Source of the DNA: Amoebidium appalachense
Taxonomy: Eukaryota > Protista > Ichthyosporea
Direction: 5' to 3'
Assembly: GCA_963693365.1 (NCBI GenBank)
Contig: CAVNZM010000010.1
Span: 2,480,001 to 2,544,000, forward strand
DNA length: 64,000 nucleotides
The notes beneath the pieces are model-generated. The model was not told the origin of the DNA. It did no database searches and was given only the letters and a program-made list of their open reading frames with translations. The position numbers and the translations under genes were made by a program. Shown in pieces: positions 5,045-45,604 of this stretch (position 1 is the first letter of the stretch; each line of letters opens with the position of its first letter).

Positions 5045-5654
5045 TGTGGTATATTATACCGGATATCTAGTATGGATGTACACAGGTTGAGATATACGCG
5101 CACGTGTACATGTATATATACCACTGTGTTTGATCTTAGGTAGGCCAGTATGCATGTCCCCCCCAGTCTTGTGCGCATGAGCATGGAGTTAAACATATGT
5201 GCACGTGCAACTTGCAGGATTATTCATGGGAAAACAGATATAATAGTCACATGGGACCGACACGTAGTAGAGGAACCATGAGCGTTAAGTTATAGTTTTA
5301 TCATGGGAAAATATGCAAGTAGCCGTGAGGTATGACTGTGGAATGCATCGATAATCAAGTACTGTCACCCGATTGGCTCACTAGGTTTATTGGAACCGTG
5401 ATAGCCATGGGACAGAACCGTGAACCGTATGTGATTGGCTCTCGTAGCCAAAAAGCACATACCGATGCGCATGTCTGAGCCGCTGTGCGAGCTCCGATAT
5501 AAGGGCATGTCGGGGGCTTCAGAGCTCACTGAGTGTGCTCGGCTTACTAGGTGTAAGTAGGACTAGCACGTAACTAAGCAAAGCGTGGTCTAGTCAACCC
5601 CGTTCGTTTATAAACATATTGTTTGTCACAGACACACGATCATATTATACAACA
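5045..5654 (+). repeat. 5' LTR of gypsy-1 (610 bp)
   Basis: TGTGGTA...TACAACA; differs from the 3' LTR by a 3-nt indel and one substitution that I could see. Confidence 0.95.
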
Positions 5655-8600
5655 GCTGAGCTACACCCCCTACACAATGTGTCCTGTTACCGTCAAGCAC
5701 GACACCACCGTCAAATCTGGCTTTGGATGTGTATTACGTGCAACGGTGCAGGTGACTGCTGCTGCTGCTGCTGCTGGCACCCTCGGTATCTTCGAGCCTA
5801 CTCGTGAATTTCGAGATAAGTTCCCCCCCACCATCTGTGAAATTAGTGTGGATAAATCTATTGCTGTTGTGTGCGAAAATGGTGTGGGTCCGGATTTGAG
5901 CGTGTTCGGTACCATCGGTCATTTCGTTCCTACGAGCCGACATGAGTACATACACGAACTGAGTGTTTTGCAAGCCGAACCCCACCCCAGTCGTACACAA
6001 ACCGTCGTTGGTGCAATAGCGCAGTGCATCAGGTGGGCAACGGGGGGTGGAGAAGGTTGCCTACCCAATTCACCTCCGGCCGTGCCACCGGGCCGGGTGC
6101 CTACCGATAACATGTGTGGGCACAAAGGGCATGTGAGTGGGACACGAGGCGGTCCGATACACTCACCGATCGACCAATCAATGTGTGCCGTTGATCATGA
6201 AAACCCCCCCCCCCCCCCGCGAAAAATTTCGGAAATTTCGGGTGGGGGTGCACACGATGCCGGCCAGGCTCCCCACGGTTTTGATTGGAATAGGGTGCCT
6301 CAGAGTATGCTTCCGGAGGTCAAGAAACTATTAGAAGCACACTCTCGTTGCTTCATCACTACGGACCCCGACGAATTTCCTCAGATTAAAGGATTCACCA
6401 TGCACATAGACACGGGAGATAACCCACCGATTCGATTAAAACAGTGGAGGTTGGAACAAGTGAAAGAGCAGGCTGCAAAGGAGATCGTGGAGGATATGTG
6501 TCGTAGAGGGCAGATGGAACAAGCACACAGTCAGTATAATTCACCCACCTTCGTAATACGAAAACCAAACGGAAAATACCGTCTGCTGACTGATTTTCGT
6601 GCTCTTAACAAGCAAATTCGAAAATCTGCCTGGCCCATGCCCAACTTGCAACAACAAATAGAGAAGTTGGCTGGGTATAAGTATTTCTGTAAAGCTGATA
6701 TGTCGGGTGCCTTTTACCAAATACTGCTAGACGCTGAGTCACGTGAAAAAACAGGATTTTCTGTGGCTGGTGTGTAGTATCGTTATTGTGTGGCACCACA
6801 GGGGCTCAGTACTTCCCCGTCCCAGCTAGCATCTATCATGACACAGATTTTGGCCCCTCTGGCCGATGACGTGGTGATATATGCCGATGATTTAGCTGTG
6901 GGTGCCCACACCGAAAAAGAATTAATACAGAAGCTTGACCGACTTTTCACCCGTCTCGGTGAATATGGTGTTAAGCTCGATGGGGCAAAGACATACATTG
7001 GGCTAACGGAAATACCGTTTTTGGGTTGGATTGTAGGTGTGAATGGCATTCGGCCCGACCCGAAAAAGGTTCAGGCAGTGAAGGATTGGCCGGTACCAAA
7101 CACACTACACCAACTCCGGGGTTTTCTGGGTATTACTTCCTATCTCCGCCGTCACATTTTAAATTATGCAGAGCGAGCCCGACCCATGAATGCCGAGTGT
7201 TACGGAGAAAAACACCGACGGTTAAAATGGACGGACAAATTAGATCGCTCGTTTAAAGATTTAAAATCGGCGTTATCGGAGGAAGTGCTTGCCCTGCCCG
7301 ATCTTTCCCCCACGGGGGGTCAGTTTCTTATTCGTTGTGATGCTAGTCGGTTCTCGGAAGGGGCTTGCCTGTATCAAAAACAAAAAGATGGCAAGTTCCG
7401 CACGGTGGCATATGCCTCCCGGATGTTTCAACCTACCGAACGTAGGTGGAGCAACATCGAACGAGAAACGCATGCAATCTATTGGGCACTGAAAGAGTTT
7501 AGGGTGTACGTGTATGGTCGAGTGAATACTATTGTGGAAAGTGACCATAAGCCCTGTCTTTCTCTTAAAGGTGTCAAACGGATAGCAAACGAACGGATGC
7601 AACGGTGGGCTTTGGAAATGCAGGAGTATGATTTCGATCTATACTACCGTCCTGGCCCTACCATGCACGATGCTGATGGGTTAAGCCGTATAGGATATAT
7701 TCTGCATGAGAACGAAAACATACCACTGGAAAAGTGGGATGTGAAAAAGGAATTACAAGAGGTTCTCACAGCAGATTTATCCGAGCTTAGCTCGAAACCA
7801 GCCGAAGTGTTTGTTGATTGGGGTGATGCACTCGAATTCACACACATTTTCGATCCAGACCGCTTGAAATGTGCACAAATTTCTGCACTCAGTCAAGCCG
7901 GCCTGCCCTCCCTTTCTGCACTCGGTGGTGCCGGCTATCAGAAGGAAGCAATTATGATGGCACAGGGGGGGACAAAATGTGTAAGGATATAATCACGTGG
8001 CTCCGGTGGCTTGCCTCCCTCGATGCCGAGGCCAAACGGGAATGGCAGGCAGGGGGGGAACGAGCTGCACACGGTCTTAATCTTGAGTATTTCGGATACA
8101 AAAAGGTTAAGAAAATAGCACAAATGTGTGTGATAGAGGATGACGTGCTTTATCATGTGGCTAAGGATGGTCGTCGTTGCCTGTATGTGCCCGAAATCCT
8201 TCGTGCTGATTTATTAAGAAGTGTGCACGACGGGGGGGCTCATACTGGCATTGAACGAACCTACGAAAGATTATACAATTATTATTGGCCACGCATGCAC
8301 AAAGATATCACTGCTTATGTGAATGCCTGCACACAGTGCCAAGGCCGTAACGATAACCCACATTTGAGAAGTAGGCCATTTGAACAGAGATACGAAAATT
8401 TAAAAATGTTCTCTCGTGTTTCTGTTGACCTTATGGGTCCGTTCACAGAAACGAAAAATGGTAACACTTTCATTTGTGTGTTTATGGATATGGCAACGAA
8501 GTATTTAATCACTGTGCCCATCCAATCTAAGCATGCCGTTAATGTTGCACATGCACTCATGAATGTAATTTGCTATATACACGGCCCCCCTCGTACACTC

Positions 8601-9533
8601 TTGAGTGATCAAGGATCAGAATTTCTCAATGAGCTAATTGTTGAGATTTGCCGTATAGCAAATATTGCACAAGTGAGCACCTCTGCATATCACCCACAAA
8701 GCAACGGTTCCAATGAACGGTCTCATAGATTTATTAATAATGCACTCTCAAAGTACGTTAATTATGAGCACACTAATTGGGACACTCTGTTGCCGGTGGT
8801 TACTGCATACAACACAACAACACACAAAATTTTGCAATGTACACCGTATTATCTTGTGTACGGGCAAGAAGCAACACAATTCCCTGACGTTGCCCTTCTT
8901 AGCAGTAATCACCCGGCACTCAAGGACCCAGAGTGGAAGGCATACCGGCGAGAGTTACTAGCCCGTCTACCTCTGCTCCGTGCTGTGGTCCAGCAACGTG
9001 CCGTACGAGAGCCCCCAGGCCCCTCGGTGGCTCGTGAATTTAAGAAGGGTGCACGGATTCGTGTTCGGAATCAAGCCAAAAATATCGGTGCCTGGGATGT
9101 ACGGTGGATTACGGGTTACGAAATCGTCAAAAGGGTCGGCCCGGTCACGTATGAAATCCGAAGCTTAGCAACTATGAAGAAATCTAAGTGGCACGTGGAC
9201 GATATTCAGCTTGAATTGAGTGAGCAAAATAGAATTCGGCCTCAAGATCTCTCTCACCTCCCGGACACGGGCGATAGTCACAACTTCAACAAGGTTCTGC
9301 CGGACGAGTGGGTGGTGGAAAAGGTGCTTGACGTAAGAATTCAGAAACGGCGCAAGCAATCCACCCCTTACAAGTGGTACCAGATCAAGTGGGCAGGCAA
9401 AGATGATTCATTCACCTCTTGGGAGTGTGAGAAAGACTTAGCCTGCCCGGACAAGATCCGAGAGTTCCACCAACGCAGAGGTGACCTTGCATCGTTCCAC
9501 GGATACATTGACTCATTGTGTGGAGCATGGTGA
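5655..9533 (+). pseudogene. pol: Gypsy pol (RT, RNase H, integrase, chromodomain) with TAG at 6775-6777 and a frameshift in the G7 run at 7965-7971
   Basis: RT KPNGKYRLLTDFRALN, APQGL, YADD; RH CDAS, ERE, SDHKP, DADGLSR; INT H-H-C-C, VDLMGP, SDQGSEF, YHPQSNGSNER; chromodomain EWVVEKVL...YQIKWAG...SWE. Confidence 0.93.
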
Positions 9534-16414: not shown

Positions 16415-16538
16415 CTTGTGTGTGTGTGCGCACGCACACTACTGTATACCGTCTGTGCTTACCACGGTGGTTTAGATAGTAAGAATTCAATACTTGGCAA
16501 CTTCTGATAATGCATTAATGATGATGTTACACCAACAG

Positions 16539-17886
16539 GGCGTGTATGCAATTTGAGCTACACCAAGTGGGTCTACAAGGGCATCTTGGACATGGGCGGC
16601 GACCCACTCCCCAAATGCTGCTATACAGGAGACATTAGCGGCTCTACCAATATCTTGTCTTGCCACCAAGCCCAGCCATGTGGGACTGGGGACGAAGCCC
16701 TTACCATTGAAAAAATTGTGTGCTACAACCTGGAGACAACTTCCTACACATCCTATATGGACCCGTTTGTAGTCATCAAGTACGGCTCTTCGAGTGCACC
16801 TTTCACCTATACAACGTCCGTCGGGACACAAATGTCCAGCGCATGGAATGTAAAATTCCCATTGTACAATGCAAATGCTGACCTGGCGGTGGATGTGGAG
16901 GTGTTGGACGACAATACCTTAACGAATCCGTTGCTTGCGACAGCATCCTTTTCCCTTGGCAGTGTTTTTTCGCAACTGCAAGCCGACGACCTTACCAGCC
17001 AAGTGACGCTTACCATCGAGACCAATAAGTTCGATTCTTATTATGTCGTCATAGACGAGAAGCCATATTGTACCTTGAGCTTTCGTCAGTTGTTGCCTCG
17101 GAATGTCCCCCAGTGGTCTGACTGGACGGCACAGGGAGACTGCTCGGTCACGTGCAATACCGGCTCCCAGGTGTGTATATATGTCCTGCCTACCAACAAT
17201 GCGAGTTTGCATTCTAGATTGTCAGGTCTGTTTGACTCAACGGCTGGAATCTGATTACGAACATAAGGGCCTGAATGCCATATTTTCTAAGTACAGATAG
17301 TATATATCATACTAAATGTATACTACTATATACTATTGATGTTATGATACTACACCGTGACATCATACGCGCGCGCACACACACACACACACACATGTAC
17401 ACGTACACACACCCCCACTGTTGTACTCACCGTGGCTCACACCGCGCCGTGTACACTGCCAACAGACACAAAGAAGTGCACTTCCCCCACTCAGCACCGC
17501 AGTACTCAATGACATAGATGACAGTAAAAACACGTCTTGATCTGTGACTCAGACCTGTTGGCGCCTGCATAAAATCTAACTAGACTTCCCATCCCCAACC
17601 ACGTGCGCAGACTTTCACCCGCACATGCACAACCGGCACCACCAACACACCGGGCAGTTGTAGCGGCGAGTCGACGACAACACGTCAGTGCACACTTTCT
17701 CCCTGCCCTGTAGTCACAACAACCACCCCCATTCCCACGGTGACCGATTCTGTGTGGACCCCGTGGAGCCCCAGCGGATCGTCTAATAGGGACGACAACT
17801 TGGCGTCGGTGAATGGGCCAATGTGGACACTGGGCATGTGGGCTAGGGCCATGGCGACACTGTGTGTGTGGATGTATGCCTATTAG
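16539..17886 (+). CDS. C2-domain + thrombospondin type-1 repeat protein, last two exons (16539-17170, 17611-17886)
   Basis: C2-like MDPFVVIKYG...WNVKF...VEVLDDNTLTNPLLATASFSL; TSP1 WSDW...CSVTCNTGSQ joined in phase 0 to TFTRTC...SCSGESTTTRQCTLSPCP; Thr-rich stalk; hydrophobic C-terminus; TAG 17884-17886. Confidence 0.82.
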
Positions 17887-24639: not shown

Positions 24640-25207
24640 CTATGAAAACTACCCCGGGACGTGTGTTGCCTCTAGGGGGACATCCCCTTGGACGAAAGTG
24701 AACCTGCAATGGTTGTAAACCACGGCAAGCCCCCAGTCATCAATTTATTGATCCGTGAGGTCCTTGTGCCCAAAAAACGGGGGAAGTCTTCGCCCCGTGA
24801 AAAAACAGCACGTATGTGTGGATCAATGGGGGTTGAGTGTTGGGTGTAGGTGGGTGGGTGAAAAGAAAATATAGCTGTAAAGCTGCAGGTGCTAAACACA
24901 GAAGATGTGTCTGTTGCTTGCTGATCTGCTAAAAACTGTCGTGCTTATATACCTAAGGCTACCGATCTGAGCCAATCAAAATCGATCTAGTGTTATGTGA
25001 AATCTAATCACTGAGCCAATCAAGCTCGGTCTAGTGATCTGTGGAATCTGATGTTTTGATCGGCTAATAGGTGCCCGTATGCGGGCAGCCGAACGCGAGC
25101 TGCTAAAACACGAAACGAAGCCTACATGGTTATGTTGATATCGGACACCCATCCTACGTGTTTACCCAGAAAAATATTTATGTCAATAAAACTCCACAAA
25201 TAAAACC
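24640..25207 (-). mobile_element. Solo terminal (A + spacer + B) remnant of the Ngaro-like family
   Basis: Reverse-complement match to ~36930-37497, ending at the same TTTTCATAG; no coding region. Confidence 0.88.
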
Positions 25208-26920: not shown

Positions 26921-27423
26921 CTGGGGGGGGGGGGGGGGGGGTGACTGTGGGAAGGGGGGGGGGGGGGGAGGGAGGAGGAGGAGGGGGGGGGGGGGGGGGG
27001 GGAGGGGGGAGGGGAAAGCTGGATGAGTGTTTTGAATACAAAAGAGCATAAGGAACAATTACATCATGTTGTAATATTTGATCTTAAAAAGAGACATTTA
27101 TTAGGGCCTGTTTGGCAGCACCCCAATAATCGTATTTGTATTTAGGCCCTAAATACGATCTACCGTATTTACAAAATTTATCGTGGTATGCGTATTTAGG
27201 GCCTAAATACGGTTGGTGCCTTCCAAACGCTGTCAGGCGTGACTGGTCACATAAAATGTCGATACATGGTTCACGAGATCTGATTGGCCTTATTCGCACC
27301 CATTGATCCCTTCGGTATGCGCCCATGCATATAGGCTGGTGCAGCTGTAATCAGTATTACAGCGAACGGCAAAAACGAGTCACCGACAGTGAATCTTGCT
27401 CTGATTAACAATAGCGGGTTAGA

Positions 27424-31161: not shown

Positions 31162-32440
31162 TTTAACATATAACATAAAACATATACATGCATCCACACA
31201 CCACACCACCATGGTTAATACCCAACCCAACCCCAAAACAAGGATAATTATGAAACGCCACTGACGTTGCCCTGTAGATGCACCTCTGCCCCCGTCCACA
31301 ACCTGCACCCAAAACCCCATGCCCCTGGCAAAATGTTATATCGAGTGGAACATAGCAACTTTGAACAGACATGATAACAGACACCATCCATACAACCACA
31401 TTCAGCATGCCCCATCCACAAAGTATTCCTAGCAAAACCTAACATGCCGTGACGAACACCTCCAGACTCATGTGACGTACACCTCCAGACTCTCTTGCTG
31501 GCCCTTCCTCTACCCGACAAAGACTCCTGCTACGTAGGTCCCGGTGGTTTGGGAATGCCTCCGCCCCAACCGTGCCCTATGACATATACTAATCCGTCTC
31601 AGCAGATTAGCCTAAGTCTACGATCAAGATCGGGGGGGGGGGGGGGGGGGGGTGGCCCGGGTCCACAGATCATCAAGATCAAGTCCGGGGCCTCAAGATA
31701 GCTGAACAGCTGCGTGCATCTTGCCTCTGCCGGCGCAGGGCATTGGACCACGTCAGCCGGGACAGCCGTCCAATAGAATTCTAATTAGTGTGTAGGATAG
31801 ATCGTAGGAGGACTTAGGAATGTGATTGTTCGGGCAGAAGCCCTTTTGTAAGGATTGGCAAGGTTTGATAGTATATGTTGCCAAGCGTATTTATATATGT
31901 AGATGTAGAGGAAAGGGGGGGAGGGAGGGGGGGGAGGATAGTATGAAATGTAGATTTAGACTCTGCGGTGCCACTAGGGGAAGGGTGAGGGGTGAGACTT
32001 GGATAAATATATTAGTTGAGTAGATCGACTTAGCTCGTGCAGGCGCACGATAAAAGTAGAGGTTTTATTTGTGGAAATTATTGACATAAATATTTTTCTG
32101 GGTAAACACGTAGGATGGGTGTTCGGTACCAACATAACCATGTAGGCTTCATTTCGTGTTTTAGCAGTTAGCGGTTGGCTGCCCGCACACGGGCACCTAT
32201 TAGCCAGTCAAAACATCAGATACCACAGATCACTAGACCGAGTTATGATTGGCTCGGATCAGATTTCACATATCACTAGATCGATTTTTGATTGGCTCAG
32301 ATCGGTAGGCTTAGGTATATAAGCACGACAGTTTTTAGCAGATCAGCAAGCTACAAACACATCTTCTGTGTTTAGCATCCACAGCCTTACAGCTATATAT
32401 TCCTTTTTCATTCTCCCTATCTTTCCCTACGCCGGTCAGC

Positions 32441-33610
32441 ATGCCGCCGAAAAAGCGCCAGGCCTCAGCCGCCGCCCCTGCCGCGGCACCTAAGCGCCTG
32501 ACCCGCAGCGACCTCCGCCACAGGCTGACCAACGCTCCCGCGGACACTGACGCGCCTCCAGCGGCCCATACCACCACGGACCCGGACCCGCCGGCTACTC
32601 TCCCCTCCACTCCTGAAGTCCCCCCTCAGGCCCCGCCGTCCCCGCAGATGACTTCTCAAGACGCCGTCCTGGCCGCCCTCACCGCCATCAGCACCCAGAT
32701 GGCTGGCGTCCTGGCTGCTCTCACCAACCGCGACCCTCCCGCGCCCCCCGCCGCGCCTTCCACACCCGGGGAGGTTTCCCCGGGGCTGCATCTCGGCCCT
32801 GACCTAGACCTACCTGCCCTGCCCGCGCCCCCCATCACAGGTGAGAACACTGGCGACATTCAGCCGGGCACACTCCCGCTTCCCCCCGCGGATGTGCTGG
32901 CAGATTTGCGCGCCAATCGTTTCGTCGACCTGTATAAGTTCACCCCCGCCGCCCTCCTGGCCCCATCCAAGAAAGGTCAGCATCTGCGCATGGCCGACGA
33001 CGGCAGCATCGAGACTTTTCGCCAAGACAAACCCGTTCCCCTGCGTTCACTCGTCATTTGGATCCAAGCTTGGACCCATTACATGGCCGCCAAGCACCAC
33101 CTCGGCCTCCCCACGGACAAAGACGTACTTTGGACTCAGCACATCACTCGCCTCAGCACCCGATACCCGTGGGCCCAGATCCACAACTATGACGTATACG
33201 CCCGCACCGTTGCCCACCAGCAGGGTCGGGCTCCGATCGAGTGTCCCAACCTGCTCGCCCAACTCCACCAGGATCTCCTCCTGCCACCCACTCTGCTCAT
33301 CCCGGACGCATGTCAGCGCTGTGGCTTCCCCGACCACCCCAGCGCAGCCTGCCCCATGTACCCCAAGCCCGGCTGTGGTCTTGACGACTTTAAGCCGCCC
33401 CACAAGCCCGGCGGGGGTCAAACCCCTAACCGCCCTGGCCCGCAACCCGGCCCGGCAAAACCGGCCCGACCCGTGGATCTACCCGCGACGCACTGCAGGA
33501 ATTTCCACATTAACGGTCGGTCCTGCGCTAAGCAGCCCTGCCCCTTCTCCCACGTGTGCCCGCTCTGCTCTGGCACACACCCCCGCAAAGACTGCAAGCA
33601 CAATGCCTAG
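32441..33610 (+). CDS. gag: Ngaro Gag-like protein
   Basis: Open 389-aa ORF with CQRCGFPDHPSAAC zinc knuckle and C-terminal CRNF..C...C.F.H.C..C...H....C finger. Confidence 0.88.
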   Translation: MPPKKRQASAAAPAAAPKRLTRSDLRHRLTNAPADTDAPPAAHTTTDPDPPATLPSTPEVPPQAPPSPQMTSQDAVLAALTAISTQMAGVLAALTNRDPPAPPAAPSTPGEVSPGLHLGPDLDLPALPAPPITGENTGDIQPGTLPLPPADVLADLRANRFVDLYKFTPAALLAPSKKGQHLRMADDGSIETFRQDKPVPLRSLVIWIQAWTHYMAAKHHLGLPTDKDVLWTQHITRLSTRYPWAQIHNYDVYARTVAHQQGRAPIECPNLLAQLHQDLLLPPTLLIPDACQRCGFPDHPSAACPMYPKPGCGLDDFKPPHKPGGGQTPNRPGPQPGPAKPARPVDLPATHCRNFHINGRSCAKQPCPFSHVCPLCSGTHPRKDCKHNA

Positions 33611-33887
33611 TCTTCGCGCACACCCACACACACCGCTAGAACATAGGGGTTAGGAGCTAGGACACACGAGTACAGGGAAACGGAGCTCGGGAGAACGGGC
33701 CAATAGGGCTGAGTACAAAATTTCGCAGGCCAACTACGGCGCCCGCGCGCGTCAAGAATAAATGTCCCTACACAAAGACGTTTATTCTGGCCACTGCACA
33801 TAATTTTACTCCCCCCCCCATCCCACGAGCCTCCCCCCCCCCCTTACACTCACCTAGCACTCCCTCCCCCCCCCTTCTTCTACCTCT

Positions 33888-34002
33888 GTGTCCGCCCACA
33901 CCCCCGCGTGCTCGGGCACATTCCCCTGCACAGGGCCCCGCTGCCCTCCCTGCCCACCCTCACTTGGGCCCAGCTGCCCTACTCTAACCCCCCGGGGCCC
34001 TG

Positions 34003-34043
<41 letters not shown>

Positions 34044-35726
34044 CTGCGGGGATCTCCCCAAGGGTACACCACCCTTGCTAACCACCCCTTCCCCCGAGGC
34101 TCAGACCCGGAGGCCCGCCCGCTGCCCCAGCACCACATTGACACCTCCCGCCTCCGGGAACTGCTGGCCTCCTACCCGGACCAACCATTCGCCACACAAC
34201 TCCTCCACGATGTCGAATTCGGCGTCGACATCGGCTATCGCGGCCCCTCCACCTCTCGGGTGGGCCCCAACCTACCCACCACCCCGGAGGCAGCTGCCGC
34301 TATCACGGTGGATATTGCCAAAGAAGTCGCCCTCGGCCACCTGCGCGGCCCCCTCTCCCCGGCCCAATTCTTTGACGAATTTCCGGTCCACCGCTCCTCC
34401 CCCATTGGCGCCGTTACCAAGAAAGGGAACCCCCCCAAGTACCGTCGAATCCACCACCTCTCCTGGCCCCGGGGTAGCAGTGTCAATGACAGCATCACCT
34501 ACCCCGACGAACTTCAGTACATTCGCGCCCGGGATGTCACCCAACTCATTCTCGACGCAGGCCCCGGCTGCTACATGGCCGTGGCAGATGTGCAGGCTGC
34601 CTTCCGGCACATGCCCATCCGACCGGAAGACCACCACTTAATGGCATTCAAATGGCAAGGGCATTTTTACGTTGAAACCAGACTGCCCTTCGGCCTGAAA
34701 TCTAGCCCAGCCATCTGGGAACGGATCGCGGCCACCCTACAGTGGCTGGCACACCAGCACGGTATTACCCTCATCCGCCACTACGTAGACGACTGGATTA
34801 TAGTCGCCCCCACACAAGAGCAGTGCCAACGTCACCTATCCACCTTCCTGCAACTCTGCCGAGAGCTGCACATTGCCATCTCCGAAGACAAGATGCAGGG
34901 CCCGGCTACCCGTGTCGTCTTCATCGGTATCGAATTCGACTCCATCGCCATGGAGGCACGAATCCCGGCTTCCAAGCTCTCGGACCTACTCGACCTCACT
35001 TCCCACCCAAAGCCCACCATCACCATTCGGGACCTCCAGTCCCTCCTCGGCAAACTCACCTGGTGTGCCCAGCTGGTTCCCCCCGGGAGGGCCTTCTCCC
35101 AGCGCCTATGGGCCCTTCTCCGGACCCACCCACACCTTGCCGGCCACCACCACATACGACTGACTGCTGCCGCCCGGGCCGACATAGCCGAATGGCACCA
35201 GTTCCTCACATCATGGAATGGGGTGCACCTCATCACACCCCCCACATACACCACCCTGGCCACTGATGCTGCCGGATCGGTGGGTCTAGGTGGCCACTGG
35301 CTCGACCAATGGTTCTTCATGCCCTGGTCCCCCTCCACCCAAGCCCTCTATGCTCATGAGGGTAAACTCGGTTCTTCCGTCATCGAACTCCTGGCCATCG
35401 CAGCCGCCGTGGCCCTCTGGGCCCCCTCCTGGTCCACCCACCATGTCCGTATTTTATGCGACAACACGGGTGCTGTGTCTGACCTGCACTCCCGGTCTTC
35501 CCCCCACCCCGTGATGGCCAAACTTATTCGGTTCATCACCCGCATGGAAATGCAATACCAATTTACGTTACAGGCATCCTACCTACCAGGACCCCTCAAC
35601 CATCTGGCCGATGCCATTTCTCGTAACCAACTTCCCCGGGCCCGACGACTCCGACCTTCCCTGCAACCGGAGCCCTGCCCCTTCCCCTCCTGGGTCCACG
35701 AGTTCCTATCCCTTCCCTTGGGCTAA
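33888..35726 (+). CDS. Ngaro reverse transcriptase / RNase H
   Basis: KYRRIHHLSWP, ADVQAAFR, LPFGLKSSP, YVDD; RH TDAA, IELLA, CDN, ADAISR; no early ATG. Confidence 0.93.
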
Positions 35727-35780
35727 CCCCCCCCCCCCCCCCCCCCCCCAGATCTCCCGTTCCGGAGCAACACTGGCAGA

Positions 35781-36812
35781 TTGGCCCCCCACTTTGCTCC
35801 GGCCGAGCTGCTTCGAGCCACCACTACCCTGCAGGAATGCCAGGCCCTGAGTCTCAACCTCGACTCTCGGGCCTTTTACTCCCGGGTGCAAAAAGTGTTC
35901 ATCGATTTCTGTGTGGCATCTCGGCTGCAATCCTCCTCCGGGTCCTCCCTCCCGGCCTCCCCACACACCGTGCAACTTTTTCTCGCCTGGTGTGCCCAAC
36001 GAGGGGTACAGGCCTCTTCCTTAACCGGCTACAATTCGGCCATCACCAGGCTCCACCTCGACATGGGCCTCCCTGCTCCCTACCCCCACGACAAGTCTCT
36101 GGCCTGGTTCCTACGGGGGGTGGGCCGATGGCAGCTTTCTCACAACATCCGACCCCGCTCATCCACCAGGGAACCCCTCCTCCCCTCCCACCTCCGCCTA
36201 CTCCATGGCCAGTGCCCCACCAAGGCCTCCTCGGCCAATCTCCGGCTATGGACGGCCCTCATCGTCGGTTTCTGTGGTCTCCTCCGTTCAGGGGAATTTA
36301 CCTCCAAGACCCTGACTTCTTTCGACCCGTCCCGTCACGTTAAACGGAAGGACGTGACCTTCAGCTACACCCCCACCGGTACTTTGTCCCATGCCACCCT
36401 CCACCTGCCAACCTCTAAGACGGATGTACAGGCCCGAGGTGTCAACGTCACCCTAGCTGCCCTGCCCCTCACCCACTTCTCCCCAGCCCATCTCCTCCGG
36501 CAGTTCCTGGATACAACGTCCGGTCAACCCGACGACCCCCTCTTCAGTCTCGGTGGCATCCCCTACACCAAGAGTGCTTTCTCTGCCGATTTCCGTGCCC
36601 TCCTCTCCCGGGCAGGCCCCTCACCCTCCCGGTTTGCCGGACACAGCCTCCGCATCGGGGGGGCCACAGCACTGGCTGAGGCCGGGGTCGACGACTCCCG
36701 GATCAAACAACTCGGCAGGTGGTCCTCCGACTGCTTCCTGATCTATACCCGACTTCGTCCGGCCTCCATTGCTGCCACCACCACACGTGTATTCGCCTCT
36801 ATTCTTAAGTGA
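35781..36812 (+). CDS. Tyrosine recombinase
   Basis: GLLRSGEF, SKTD, GHSLRIGGAT, LGRWSSDCFLIY catalytic motifs (R-K-H-R-W-Y) all present; no early ATG. Confidence 0.94.
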   Translation: MAPHFAPAELLRATTTLQECQALSLNLDSRAFYSRVQKVFIDFCVASRLQSSSGSSLPASPHTVQLFLAWCAQRGVQASSLTGYNSAITRLHLDMGLPAPYPHDKSLAWFLRGVGRWQLSHNIRPRSSTREPLLPSHLRLLHGQCPTKASSANLRLWTALIVGFCGLLRSGEFTSKTLTSFDPSRHVKRKDVTFSYTPTGTLSHATLHLPTSKTDVQARGVNVTLAALPLTHFSPAHLLRQFLDTTSGQPDDPLFSLGGIPYTKSAFSADFRALLSRAGPSPSRFAGHSLRIGGATALAEAGVDDSRIKQLGRWSSDCFLIYTRLRPASIAATTTRVFASILK

Positions 36813-38279
36813 AACCTTTGGAGCAAGCATACTGCTCTCGTGCCGTGGTTTACAACCATTGCAGGTTCACTTTCGTCCAAGGGGATGTCCCCCTAGAGGC
36901 AACACACGTCCCGGAGTAGTTTTCATAGAGGTTTTTATTTGTGGAAATTATTGACATAAATATTTTTCTGGGTAAACACGTAGGATGGGTGTTCGATACC
37001 AACATAACCATGTAGGCTTCATTTCGTGTTTTAGCAGTTAGCGGTTGGCTGCCCGCACACGGGCACCTATTAGCCAGTCAAAACATCAGATACCACAGAT
37101 CACTAGACCGAGTTATGATTGGCTCGGATCAGATTTCACATATCACTAGATCGATTTTTGATTGGCTCAGATCGGTAGGCTTAGGTATATAAGCACGACA
37201 GTTTTTAGCAGATCAGCAAGCTACAAACACATCTTCTGTGTTTAGCATCCACAGCCTTACAGCTATATATTCCTTTTCACCCACCCACCTACACCCACAC
37301 ACAACCCCCATTGATCCACACATACGTGCTGTTTTTTCACGGGGCGAAGACTTCCCCCGTTTTTTGGGCACATGGACCTCACGGATCAATAAATTGATGA
37401 CTGGGGGCTTGCCGTGGTTTACAACCATTGCAGGTTCACTTTCGTCCAAGGGGATGTCCCCCTAGAGGCAACACACGTCCCGGAGTAGTTTTCATAGTCT
37501 TCTTTTTCCTCTCCATCCCTGAAGGGTGACTCAGGAGAGGAACAACTTTCGTCCCAATTCACCCCGATGGGACCCACACCGTCCCCTCCCCCACCCCCAA
37601 AAATCACCCCTGAGATTGCAGCAGGGGGAGGGTGTTCTACCCTGATCTGACGTCCCACCGGCGCCACCTGCCCCCACTAATGCACTACTCATCAGGACCC
37701 CGCCGGAGGGCACCCCCCTACCAAGCACAGATGAGTGGCACTAGGGCAGAGGGGAGCAAAGTGACAGTGCAAGAGAGAAACGGAGCGCAAAGAGAAAAAG
37801 GGGAGAGAGAGGAAGGAGGGGGAGGAGAGAGAGAGACAAGGCGGAAAGGGGGAGAGGGAAGAGAGGACAGCAGAAAGGTGGGGCCCAGCTAGGACTCACA
37901 GGATAAAGGAGAGGGGGAGGGAAGAAGAGGAGGGGAGAAGGGAGAAGTAGGGGGAGGAGGAGGGCGAGGCGAAGGAAGTACAGAGGGAAAAAAAGGAAAA
38001 GAGAGAGAGGCGCAGATGGGGGGGGAAGGGGAGGGGGGGAGGGGAGGGGAAGGGAGGCGGAGGAGGAGGCACGAGCCGCGCCAGGGCCAGGGAGGAGGAA
38101 GTGGGCCGCGGTCTGGTGAGTTTATAATATGAAAGGTTAACTCTCGGAAGGGAAGAGGGAGGGGGGAGGAGAGAGGGGAGGGGGAAGGGGGGAGAGGAGA
38201 AGGATTGGGGAAAGGGGAGTAGGTGAGGGGAAGAGGCAGGGAGTTGAAGGGAAAAAGGAGAGAAAGAGAAGGAATGAGG

Positions 38280-39948
38280 TAGAGCAGGATTTAGTTTATC
38301 TTGTTCTGGGCCAGACGGACACGAGTTTGGGTCCCGACGGCACTTGTGCCTGAGGTTTTGCATATGGTGCATGAGCATCCCATGGCTGGTCATTTAGGTG
38401 TAAATAGGACGTTGCTTCGTGTTAATCGTTCGTATTTTTGGCCGGGTATGAGTAGGGAGGTGAGGGATTATGTGTTGTCATGCATGCATTGTCAGGAAAG
38501 GAATGAGAGTCCCCACTCTCGTTCCCGCCCGTCGTTTATTAGGGATTTTAATGTTCGTATGTTTGAAAGGGTAGCAGTGGATGTGGTCGGTCCTTTTAAT
38601 TCTACGGTTGAGGGTAACACTGTTCTTGTTACCGTCACCGATGTGGCCACTCGTTGGGTTGAAGTTTTTCCTCTCCCCACTGCTAATGCCGTTTTGTTTG
38701 CTCGTATTTTTGTGGATGAAATTTGTCTTAGGTTTGGTTGTCCTCGTGTTTTGTTAACGGATAGGAGTCGTGTGTTTTTAAATCAGTTGGTGTCGGAGGT
38801 GTGTAAAATTTTAAGGGTAGCTCATATCACTACGTCTGCATATCACCCTCAAGCAAAGTGCCATCTCTGAACGTGTGCATGCAGTGTTTCAGAAGTCCTT
38901 TGGCAAAATGGTGGATGTGGAGGCTAATGATTGGGATCATATGTCTAGGTTTATTGCTCATTCATATAATTCTACCCCTCATGCTGTGACTGGTTTTTCT
39001 CCGTTTTATTTGGTCTATGGGCAGGAGGCTATTAGTTTGTTAGATACGGCACTTTTGCCGATGGGGGGGGCTGACCGACTAACTTATCCCCACTGGACTG
39101 AGTTCCGGGAGCAGCTACTAACCCGGGCCCGGGCTGCACGTGATGCAGCTCTGGCCCGTACACAGCAGGCACAGGCACGTACAGACGTGTCCACACGTCC
39201 GTTACGTGAATTTGCCGAGGGTACTTTAGTTTTAATTAGGGATCATACTAGGAAAAAGAGATATAAGCAGGAGCAGGAAGGTAAGGGTGAAGGTGAAGGT
39301 CTTCGTAAGTATGGTAAGAAATGGTTGCCTCTTTTTATCGGTCCGTATAAAATAGTGGCTAGGTTAGGTCCGACGGAATATAAGGTGCAGAGGTTAGATA
39401 ATGAGAGTGATGTTAGATTTTATAATGTAGATGATATAAAGGAATATTATGATAGGGCCCTTAGGGTTAAACGGCCGGAGGGCCGTCGAGTGTTAGATGC
39501 ATTCACCCCCGACTATGACGGGTCGGTGGATGTATCGGAGGCTGCAGTAGATAAAATTATGGATAAAAAGGTTATCGAAGGTAAGGAAGGTAAGGTAAAT
39601 TATTATTTAATTCGTTTTGGGGGAGGTTATCAGGAAGATCAGTGGTTGCCTGAGTTTCATTTGGATTGCCCGTTTTCTATTCGTGCTTATGAGGCTAGAT
39701 TAGTGCAGAGGGAGTTGCCTAGTGCTCCCTCTAGGCCAAAGAGAGTTCAAGTTATTCCTCAGTTTAATCGTGGTGTGAAAAAGTCGATGGGGGAGGGGGC
39801 CGGGGGGGGAGTGATGCAAATACACGTAGACACACGGGGGGAGGGGGAGGGGGGGGAGGAGACCGAGGAGGAGTGTGAACGTAGTCGTAGGAATTTAATT
39901 TATTATCATAGGTGTCTCCGTAGGTATCAAGCTTATGGTGTAGATTAA
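38280..39948 (+). pseudogene. Gypsy-2 integrase + chromodomain, frameshifted near 38860
   Basis: VHEHPMAGHLG...CMHCQ, VDVVGP, TDR, YHPQ | ERVH, GPY, VDKIMDKK...YLIRFGG...QWLPE. Confidence 0.9.
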
Positions 39949-40082: not shown

Positions 40083-40797
40083 TGACATATACTAATCCGT
40101 CTCAGCAGATTAGCCTAAGTCTACGATCAAGATCGGGGGGGGGGGGGGGGGGGGGTGGCCCGGGTCCACAGATCATCAAGATCAAGTCCGGGGCCTCAAG
40201 ATAGCTGAACAGCTGCGTGCGTCTTGCCTCTGCCGGCGCAGGGCATTGGACCACGTCAGCCGGGACAGCCGTCCAATAGAATTCTAATTAGTGTGTAGGA
40301 TAGATCGTAGGAGGACTTAGGAATGTGATTGTTCGGGCAGAAGCCCTTTTGTAAGGATTGGCAAGGTTTGATAGTATATGTTGCCAAACGTATTTATATA
40401 TGTAGATGTAGAGGAAAGGGGGGGAGGGAGGGGGGGGGAGGATAGTATGAAATGTAGATTTAGACTCTGCGGTGCCACTAGGGGGAGGGTGAGGGGTGAG
40501 ACTTGGATAAATATATTAGTTGAGTAGATCGACTTAGCTCGTGCAGGCGCACGATAAAAGTAGATCGGAATGTTAATGGAATGTGGCATCGTAGGGGGCC
40601 AGGTGATGATGATCTTTGAGGGCACGGCCTTGATGGCCTCAGTCGTAACTTAGACTCATTCCGTACGGATCTAAGTTTGCCCGTCGGAGCCTGGTCTGAA
40701 TAAACTTTACCGTTTTTCTGCACACGTTCGTTCCTTTTCGTGTGTGTACACTTAGTAGAGTGCTGCGTCTCTAGTACACATACATTAGGATACGACA
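40083..40797 (+). repeat. 3' LTR of gypsy-2 (715 bp)
   Basis: TGACAT...CGACA; first ~480 bp repeat 31580-32059. Confidence 0.92.
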
Positions 40798-43158: not shown

Positions 43159-45604
43159 TCACCACGGGAGATAAGCTGATTCGTCGAAAATCACGTCACG
43201 GAAGAGGCCGACACGATGGGTGGTGGAGTTGAAGATCCGGTGGCAGTGTGATTGAAGATCATAGCCAATACACATGCCGAGTTTGACCGTGGGGGCCAGC
43301 TTGTTCCGTTTGGAGGCTGGCACGTGAGTGTAGGCAGGGCAACCAAACACTTTGAGCTCGGAGATGTCGGGCTTGACGCCGTAGAAAACCTCGAACGGAG
43401 TACGACCGTTGGCAGCCGTGGACGGGGTGACGTTGATGATGTAGGCAGCATGTTGGAGGGCCTCAGCCCACAGTTTGGGGGACAGAGACTAATCTCAGAC
43501 TTGATGGAGGAGGCAACGAACAATCTCTTGGAGGAACCGCATACGACGTTCAACATAGCCGTTCAGTTGAGGGCAGTCCACCGGAGCATAACTGGCCTTG
43601 ATGCCCTGCCAGTGGGAGATGCAAAAAGCACGGGTAGCCTGGGAGTTGAACTCAGAGCCGGAGTCGAAGTGGTAGACACCAACTTTGGAGGGGGCATGTG
43701 TAGCTACGAGGTTGGTGTGAGCTGTGATAATGTCCAGGGTGGTTGTACGGTCGGCCATCGGGTAGATCTTGACGAGTCCGGAGGCACGGCAGACAGTGAC
43801 GAGAGCAACCTTGGAGCCTCCGTACGATGTCGTGGTAGGCTCAAAAAAAATCCCAATGCCATTCATGGCCGGGGATGGTGGAGTGAGGACGGTCACCCTT
43901 GAACGGGGCCTTGGTAGTTTTACCCATGATGCAGCCATGACAATTAGGAACATCACAGTCGAGGACAGACAAGGGGAGGCCGATAACAAGGTCGTGTTTC
44001 ACCATTTCCTTGATGCTGGTCATAGCACGGTGCCCCAGACGATGGTGCCAGATGGACGGGTTAACACTGGTAGTGGCAGCCAGAGCCACAGGACGAGTGG
44101 GTGGTTGAATCGTGTAGTCCGTGAAGTAATACAGACCGTTGTGTAGACGGAGGTTGACGAGGTGACGGCCTGTGAGTCGGTCGAAGAGGAATGATGGAGT
44201 GGAGGCATCATTCAAATCACCCTTGATGTATTCGGCAGCAGCTTGGGATGTTGAGATGAGGAAGGCTTGGCCAGACGGGGTGTAGTAGGCCTCAATGGTA
44301 AGGGTGGCAGTGCCATGGTCGGTGGTGGTGTTGATGACGATATGGCCGGTGTGGGTGGCCAAGACGGGGGTCCCGTTGAAGGCAGCAACGGGAGTCGGTG
44401 TCGGGAGGGGAGTGAGATCATGGAAGAACTCACGGGTGGGGCAGACAGTCATGTTGCACCCGGAATCCCAGGCAGGGTCGGAAGACACGGGGACGGAGCT
44501 AGCATTGTATGCAGAGAAGGCAAAGGAGACGGATTTCTCACTGCCCTGACGGGAACGGTTGTGTCTGGACATACGGCATTTCGGTTCGGGGCAATCGATG
44601 ATCTTGTGATCAGGCTCGTGGCAGTAGGAGCATTCATTCGCTGACGGGATGCTAGAACGAGCCAGGGAAGCAGAACGACGGGAACCCGAGAAACGGGAAC
44701 GATTGGGGAACGGGACGTGGACCGGAAGGCAGGCCGGTGGGGGGAACTGGAACGGGTGTGCTGACGGGAGAGACGAGTTCGGAGGTCCGACGAGTCCGTC
44801 CCGGAGGTACGGTCAAGTCGGTGGCGTAAGTCACGGCGGGGAAGATCACGGGGGGGAGCACTGGCATTCAATGCCATGCTGGTCTTGGAGGGACGGTGTG
44901 CACGGTTGTTCCGGAGTTGCATCTTGAGGTCTTGACGTAACTCGATGCCCTTGATGTGGTTGTGCAGGGACTCAAAGTCGGGGAATATCTTATCACCGAA
45001 GTGGTAGTTTTCGATGAGGCGGTTGAACTCAGGGGTGAGGTCGTCTCGGGTGGTGAGTTCATTGAAGAACTTCTCAGCTAGACAAGTGAAGTGAATGGAC
45101 TCATCTTGGAGGGACTGGAGCTGGTTCACGATGGTCTGCAGACGACGCAGGTAGGTGGTGAATGATTCACCGGGCTGGAGAGCACAGGCATCCCACTGAC
45201 GGTGAAGGATGCGGATCTGATCGGGTTTGCCTTGAAGGTAGTGTTGACGGAATTTCCACATGGCCCGTTCAGGGTCCATGCCAATGCGGTACTGGGCGAC
45301 GGTGGTGAGCACGGAAGGGTCGATGTTCTGAATCATATGGAGCAGGAGGCTATTGCGGGCCTCCTTGAGTTCCGCGGCAGTGCCGTAGCCGTAGAAGTAG
45401 AGTTCACCGTCGACCGCGACGGTGGTAGGGGGGACGTACACTGTCAGCAAGCACAACATCCACGAGTCGGACACCTTTGGTGCCGGTCATCATGCCGAGA
45501 AAGATGATTTCCCATTGAAAATAGGTGGCTTTGCTATCGGGGCCAGTCTTCCCTTCACCTTTCCACATGGTTATTTTGTTCACACCAGTTTTGTTTGGAT
45601 CCAT
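43159..45604 (-). pseudogene. Copia gag-protease-integrase with several frameshifts
   Basis: ATG 45604 MDPNK; gag QPGESFTTYLRRL; knuckle CSYCHEPDHKIIDC; protease AWDSGC; WHHRLGH...CHGCIMGKTTKAPF; DSGSEF; PQLNGYVERR; FGCPAY...RDVIFDE. Confidence 0.9.

Follow-up and report, generated by a model that had tools for sequence, protein, structure and literature searches.

How does a retrotransposon translate its enzymes when only the first of its open reading frames (ORFs) has a start codon? The question is raised by an intact retroelement at 32060-37497 in a 64,000-nt stretch of the genome of the ichthyosporean Amoebidium appalachense (assembly GCA_963693365.1, contig CAVNZM010000010.1, positions 2,480,001 to 2,544,000 of the forward strand; hereafter the window, to which all coordinates refer). 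The element has the plan A1-gag-RT/RH-YR-B1A2B2, where RT/RH stands for reverse transcriptase and RNase H and YR for tyrosine recombinase, and its repeat plan and ORF order class it as a Ngaro-type YR retrotransposon (Table 1). Only gag begins with an ATG. A first-pass annotation had argued that neither RT nor YR has a usable start, placing their first methionines about 230 and 95 residues in; the positions are in fact codons 240 and 113, both inside conserved sequence. It had further proposed that both enzymes are made by splicing from one donor inside gag. Our analysis points to a different layout as the probable one: gag joined in frame to RT/RH by an intron at 33516-34104, and YR likely reached through a second splice to an acceptor ending at 35751.

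Frameshifting was examined as an alternative and was rejected for gag and RT. Just after gag, and still upstream of the long C runs, stops at 33608-33651 close all three frames, with the result that no frameshift or homopolymer correction can link gag to RT in this copy; this also rules out the earlier concern that corrected poly-C lengths might create a frameshift-type overlap of the two ORFs. Both slippery-like heptamers (33675 and 33718) lie past the gag stop.

Evidence for the intron itself came from sequencing runs. Twenty-four runs were listed, none recorded as RNA, and eight were compared, all as assembled contigs. In X19, which comprises 44 million letters of contigs and is labelled "DNA?", one contig joins 33514 to 34104; with the cut moved by +1 the joint reads GT..AG, corresponding to an intron at 33516-34104. 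The resulting join, 33515^34105, has its donor in phase 1, is in frame and leaves an open frame of 898 amino acids (aa) to the RT stop. The contig has a depth of 118.5 and 29 letters on its short side, and the upstream contig terminates exactly at 33515. In the bin 34064-34189, the joined contig and an internally deleted derivative (depth 67.4) explain all of the depth (131.7 expected, 131.7 observed). Among the 13 distinct joints listed, this is the only one with GT..AG ends. It was not listed in the other seven runs, including X1 and X16, which carry the same organism label (13,291 contigs placed, with differences from 1 in 100, and 1,872 contigs placed, respectively). In 400,000 random deletions of the element, such ends arose in 0.19% of the draws, and together with an in-frame gag fusion in 0.015%; the chance of an in-frame GT..AG among 13 joints is about 0.002. 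The joined GT..AG contig and the stops in all three frames support splicing of RT, and we hold with high confidence that this splice is real. Should X19 be DNA, the contig would represent a spliced RNA copied back by reverse transcription, and the splice would be implied all the same. Splicing in place of frameshifting, as first proposed, is supported for RT, but not by the route from 32840 to 33933 that had been predicted: no joint at either of these two sites was listed in the eight runs.

The signals around the two acceptors are alike. The hexamer GCTAAC, which matches the usual branch-point consensus, has just two occurrences in 32441-36812 (34077 and 35722), and the two motifs lie 23 and 25 nt before the CAG at 34104 and at 35751, respectively. 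The branch motif at the YR acceptor, together with the conservation of a phase-1 acceptor before YR in relatives (see below), supports splicing of YR, which is very likely reached in this way. The donor used is less clear. The consensus donor reported after 32840 is present in phase 1, as are the AGs at 33933 and 35751, and joining it to either of them gives an open frame (730 and 486 aa, respectively). Our scorer for donors and acceptors was a simple generic one, and its search range for RT acceptors ended upstream of 34104, so this site was not picked in the window. Twelve of the 33 GTs in gag are phase 1, and 32840, 32975 and 33515 hold the top three ranks. Four phase-1 AGs (33933, 34062, 34098 and 34104) precede the conserved RT start. 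With several phase-1 donors and four phase-1 AGs, a phase match alone is weak, and the warning in the first-pass annotation that a double match could well arise by chance was justified. Position 32840 lies 23 codons ahead of the gag core, and a best donor as strong as this one was found in 37 of 1000 synonymous shuffles of gag. We slightly favour 32840 as the YR donor, which would give the fusion of 486 aa; 33515, giving 711 aa, is possible but less likely, and some other site is unlikely.

Relatives of the element provided further information. The closest proteins are 52-54% identical (P0001, P0098 and P0099). P0001 is the closest YR relative, and its similarity begins directly after 35751. 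The RT relatives are RT/RH proteins without names (24-53% identity), which upstream of about 34104 have only unalignable Pro-rich leaders; a search of the Atlas likewise returned only RT clusters without names. A metagenome scan using a single RT gave no match, and an alignment-based scan gave 80 loci at 27-40% identity, all distant. A YR hit was found at 61 of the 80 loci; seven were left out because their hits start late, and the remaining 54 were grouped into 35 families. Within 150 nt of the YR start, the top-scoring acceptor was phase 1 in 31 of the 35 families; of all AGs in that range, window included, 135 of 281 were phase 1. Most YR acceptors of relatives fall in the RNase H motif D-x-L/I-S-R-x-Q, so that protein constraint on this motif could imitate acceptor conservation. 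Its Gln, however, is encoded by CAG in 24 of 25 families, while CAG makes up 214 of 462 Gln codons elsewhere (window included). The window copy has CAA at this old site and a new phase-1 acceptor past the RT stop, and several relatives have likewise shifted the YR acceptor while retaining phase 1. At distant Ngaro-like loci (e.g., L006, L008, L023 and L044), the stretch encoding the RNase H motif A-D-x-L-S-R-x-Q also reads as a phase-1 acceptor for YR, complete with a GCTGAY branch-like motif, a pyrimidine tract and CAG.

On the donor side, the window gag aligns with ORF1 of distant relatives. The best gag donor was phase 1 in 22 of the 26 families with a usable gag, a count that one of 200 synonymous shuffles reached, and strong phase-1 donors lie just before or within the gag core motif in L008, L025, L032, L034 and L044. 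The gag donor signal across relatives is real but modest. We found no gag homologues at E<=0.01 among proteins of 213-681 aa; the gag profile matched three of 189 proteins, all of them RT relatives. No ready-made Gag-YR fusion was found among 97 YR relatives (proteins of up to 618 aa).

Several observations weigh against the proposed arrangement. The RT join is a single contig from one run, with a short side of 29 letters and the label "DNA?". Its donor is a poor match to the consensus. Run X20, whose RNA label is a guess, passes through 32840 and 33515 without splicing, and its cover at both acceptors is zero; as X20 lacks cover at 33765-34591 and 35486-35897, and X23 covers only the repeats, these two runs provide no evidence either way. 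In X19, a contig of depth 137.7 runs unbroken across 32840, from 32763 to at least 32861; contigs lose rare forms, and no fork at 32840 was retained for that allele. No YR join was seen: the region 35715-35759, which holds the poly-C and the YR acceptor, was masked as a repeat in all runs, which puts this junction outside the reach of the contig comparison. The YR contig begins at 35753 in X19, but it does so as well in the unspliced X7, so this break is uninformative on splicing. Coding sequence itself favours phase-1 donors, with 16 of 26 in RT frames and a shuffle mean of 16.8. The families are related, so that their counts are not independent and none of them is a probability. Finally, the RT acceptors are unbiased in phase (12/10/10 among 32 scored, window included), which argues that the RT intron is not a family-wide trait.

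The RT intron thus looks specific to this lineage, judging from the sequences compared. In most distant relatives, RT overlaps the end of gag. In the window copy, the RT frame is open for 281 codons (32808-33653) beneath the 3' two thirds of gag, and the four stops that close it all fall in the intron, the length of which (589 nt) amounts to a +1 shift. This open frame may be left over from an overlap of the two ORFs such as relatives show.

Among the alternatives, the one that survives best is a single shared donor at 33515, serving either RT (34105) or YR (35752) and leaving 32840 idle. This is the sole donor seen in use, its phase matches both acceptors, and contigs in X19 and X20 cross 32840 unbroken. 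Against it, 32840 is by far the stronger donor (score of 6.6 versus -0.4), several relatives have strong phase-1 donors just before or in the gag core motif, and the unbroken contigs count for less given that rare forms are lost from them. We regard a shared donor at 33515 as rather doubtful.

A second alternative accepts the RT splice but has YR produced by readthrough of the RT stop, as a Gag-RT-RH-YR polyprotein, or from an internal start. RT and YR do share one frame, parted by a single TAA (35724-35726) in this assembly, as had been pointed out, and the YR ORFs of fungal Ngaro elements are described as either in frame or shifted in the portion of PMC3783388 available. However, this TAA belongs to the GCTAAC branch motif, behind which come a pyrimidine tract and a phase-1 AG, and readthrough would stand or fall with how long a C homopolymer is. 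Most relatives, moreover, have YR in a different frame, with the conserved phase-1 acceptor. As for an internal start, the first methionine is at codon 113, within the conserved part. Readthrough or an internal start is therefore improbable. Two related candidates were set aside. A short intron excising only the RT stop, from phase-1 GTs at 35361-35622, is unsupported, and an X19 contig is unbroken over 34310-35669. Record lengths in X11 would be compatible with 24 rather than 23 nucleotides in the C run, a length at which readthrough would fail, but this was not counted, as it assumes that the contigs are adjacent.

The joined contig could also be a genomic deletion or chimera of a defective copy, or a cryptic splice without function. 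The family does have several deletion derivatives, which contribute to the 13 joints, and the evidence is one contig from a run whose kind is guessed. The GT..AG ends, the frame and the branch-linked acceptor speak against a deletion, as does the low chance of such a joint, and in this copy the RT start cannot be reached from an ATG in any other way; we consider this explanation very improbable. As a side observation, internal deletions do recur in this family without GT..AG ends: 32583->33358 was seen in X11, X19, X16 and X7, and 34169->35622 in X11 and X19. A joint from 32336 to 36897, linking part of A to part of B, was found in X20 and X23 along with loose ends from other sequence, and perhaps comes from a related family sharing the end motifs. 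The model with 32840 as the one donor, for RT at 33933 as well as for YR at 35751, is hardly credible even though the three sites are in place with matching phase and open joins, since the observed RT join uses 33515 and 34104, and 33933 has no CTAAC-type branch motif nearby and would add a low-complexity Pro-rich leader over a 37-nt C run.

We therefore return to two splices, one to RT and one to YR, and outline how the element could be expressed. A single promoter in A1, with its TATA-like box, would drive all RNAs. Unspliced RNA would serve both as the genome and as the Gag mRNA, and a shorter Gag mRNA might end at the AATAAA within the intron, one of only two in 32000-37520 (the other is at 37388). 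Depth in X19 peaks just before this signal, although contig depth cannot rank gene parts, and the C-rich DNA there drops out in other runs too. The spliced RNA would encode a predicted Gag(1-358)-RT-RH protein of 898 aa in which the CCHC knuckle is retained and most of the C-terminal finger is missing, while the second splice, from gag to 35751, would yield a predicted Gag-YR fusion. With so weak an RT donor, Gag would outnumber Gag-RT, a balance that frameshifting achieves elsewhere. A broader scenario, in which the gag-YR splice is old and family-wide and the RT intron was added in this lineage, replacing a gag-pol frameshift, with intronic polyadenylation setting the Gag excess, is tentative and has close to an even chance of being right.

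Table 1. Features of the retroelement, by position in the window (feature, position, strand, remarks)
Terminal repeat A1	32060..32407	+	aligns with 36929-37277
TATATAA (TATA-like)	32316-32322	+	inside A1; likely promoter (predicted role)
gag-like ORF, 389 aa	32441..33610	+	ATG at 32441; CX2CX4HX4C knuckle at aa 291-304; C-terminal Cys/His finger
Donor CAG/GTGAGA, phase 1, gag codon 133	32838..32846	+	strongest gag donor; candidate YR donor; no join seen
GT..AG intron, 589 nt	33516..34104	+	gag codon 358 to RT frame; donor ACG/GTCGGT, acceptor CTCAG/
AATAAA within intron	33757..33762	+	147 nt past gag stop; possible end signal of Gag-only mRNA (predicted function)
RT acceptor region: branch motif GCTAAC, pyrimidine tract, CAG	34077..34104	+	acceptor used in observed joint
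RT/RNase H exon	34105..35726	+	stop-to-stop frame from 33858; YVDD intact
Predicted YR acceptor region: GCTAAC (includes RT stop TAA), C23, AG	35722..35751	+	phase 1
Tyrosine recombinase exon	35752..36812	+	stop-to-stop frame 35727-36812
Repeat B1	36841..36928	+	88 nt, identical to 37410-37497
Repeat A2	36929..37277	+	aligns with A1
Repeat B2	37410..37497	+	AATAAA at 37388 precedes; ends in TAG

The remaining features of the element are consistent with its class. Its repeats are split and direct (A1 ... B1 A2 B2), and its gag-like, RT/RNase H and YR ORFs follow each other on the same strand, as in Ngaro-like elements. The RT frame matches Pfam RVT_1 (E 1.4e-18) and the YR frame matches Phage_integrase (E 3e-07). 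The catalytic motifs of both enzymes are intact, and R187, K231, H306, R309, W332 and Y340 of YR (stop-to-stop numbering) are invariant across the alignment. Gag residues 352-371 gave a weak match to zf-CCCH_12 (E 0.057), under the cut-off. The RT frame stops about 33 aa beyond the last RH motif, and no methyltransferase domain was found after RNase H with Pfam at E<=0.1, RVT_1 and RVT_thumb being the only matches. A PAT-like element was rejected on this account, although the repeats would fit. A DIRS1-like element was also rejected, since the terminal repeats are direct and the 25 longest of 291 inverted pairs are only G/C runs. TAG precedes A1, marks the junction of B1 and A2, and closes B2, a pattern consistent with integration by recombination at this triplet. 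A solo A-spacer-B copy of the family, slightly diverged, lies on the minus strand at 24640-25205, like the known solo repeats of Ngaro elements.

The element adjoins the end of a repeat shared by 31580-32059 and 40083-40564, and gypsy-type integrase frames (rve, Integrase_H2C2 and SH3_Tf2-1) lie downstream at 38295-39948, so that it looks nested in a long terminal repeat (LTR) element. The sequence past B2 does not resume the shared repeat, making a rearrangement likely. Elsewhere in the window, long frames read by eye as copia-type (274-2940, and 43841-45486 on the minus strand) and gypsy-type (5614-9533). A host-like exon at 16511-17254 has a C2 domain (E 1.1e-05) and weakly matches thrombospondin type 1. 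Two likely host exons on the minus strand, at 26921 and about 25725, have open frames of about 45-50 codons behind poly-C or CA-repeat acceptors; the former agrees with the poly-C acceptor style previously noted for host introns here, being a C19-AG ahead of an open frame.

In the parts available of the literature, Ngaro elements have the plan A1-[ORFs]-B1A2B2 (PMC8547959, PMC9210276), and Ngaro-like ORFs are given as overlapping, in frame or frameshifted (PMC8547959, PMC9210276, PMC3783388, PMC6681497, PMC4157794). The same parts make no mention of splicing or introns (PMC3783388) or of splicing (PMC9210276, PMC8547959), and the splicing in the available text of PMC7192593 concerns an engineered marker. 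The element described here resembles these Ngaro-like (DIRS) elements, as far as they are covered there, in its split direct repeats, its gag-RT/RH-YR order, the lack of a methyltransferase and the solo AB repeats elsewhere; unlike them, it has stops in every frame between gag and RT, and an intron connects the two.

Splicing is known from other retroelements. In the Ty1/copia elements EVADE and BARE1 and in Ogre, alternative splicing of one transcript sets the ratio of Gag to enzyme, and in EVADE and BARE1 the spliced RNA gives a short Gag and the unspliced RNA gives Gag-Pol (PMC12786077, in the text available). From the same partial account, our element would have the reverse of the EVADE/BARE1 scheme, the unspliced RNA giving Gag and the spliced one Gag-RT, and all three are LTR elements with a DDE integrase, in contrast to this YR element. 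Foamy viruses make Pol from a spliced mRNA and not by frameshifting; their Pol starts independently and is separate from Gag. Our element is similar in obtaining RT by splicing, but its RT lacks an independent start and would be made with most of Gag attached. The env and accessory mRNAs of retroviruses provide downstream genes via splicing from one promoter, the unspliced RNA being the genome (PMC12789967, as far as available); here, by comparison with that portion, splicing is predicted to yield Gag fusions, and it is the core enzymes that lie downstream. The literature compared, also in part, included PMC3266345, PMC12477816, PMC9341512 and PMC5890265. In the parts of the open literature covered, which did not extend to the founding Goodwin and Poulter papers, the 2015 review or supplements, we found natural splicing reported neither for Ngaro elements nor for other YR retrotransposons. 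Retrotransposon splicing as such is known, and a Gag-RT join by splicing is unreported for the YR class in the portions of literature examined.

The conserved phase-1 acceptor within the RNase H motif of distant relatives suggests that YR genes are mis-annotated at their 5' ends across the group. How the downstream ORFs of YR retrotransposons, often without an ATG, are translated is left open in the parts of the literature examined, and a defined in-frame junction makes the question testable. The enzymes would be Gag fusions instead of free RT and YR, and producing Gag-Pol via splicing would invert the copia/EVADE scheme, as far as the latter is described in the text available. If the broader scenario is true, two donors and two acceptors would yield three proteins, with each enzyme taking its own Gag handle into the particle, and Ngaro retrotransposons would have a retrovirus-like splicing programme run from a single promoter.

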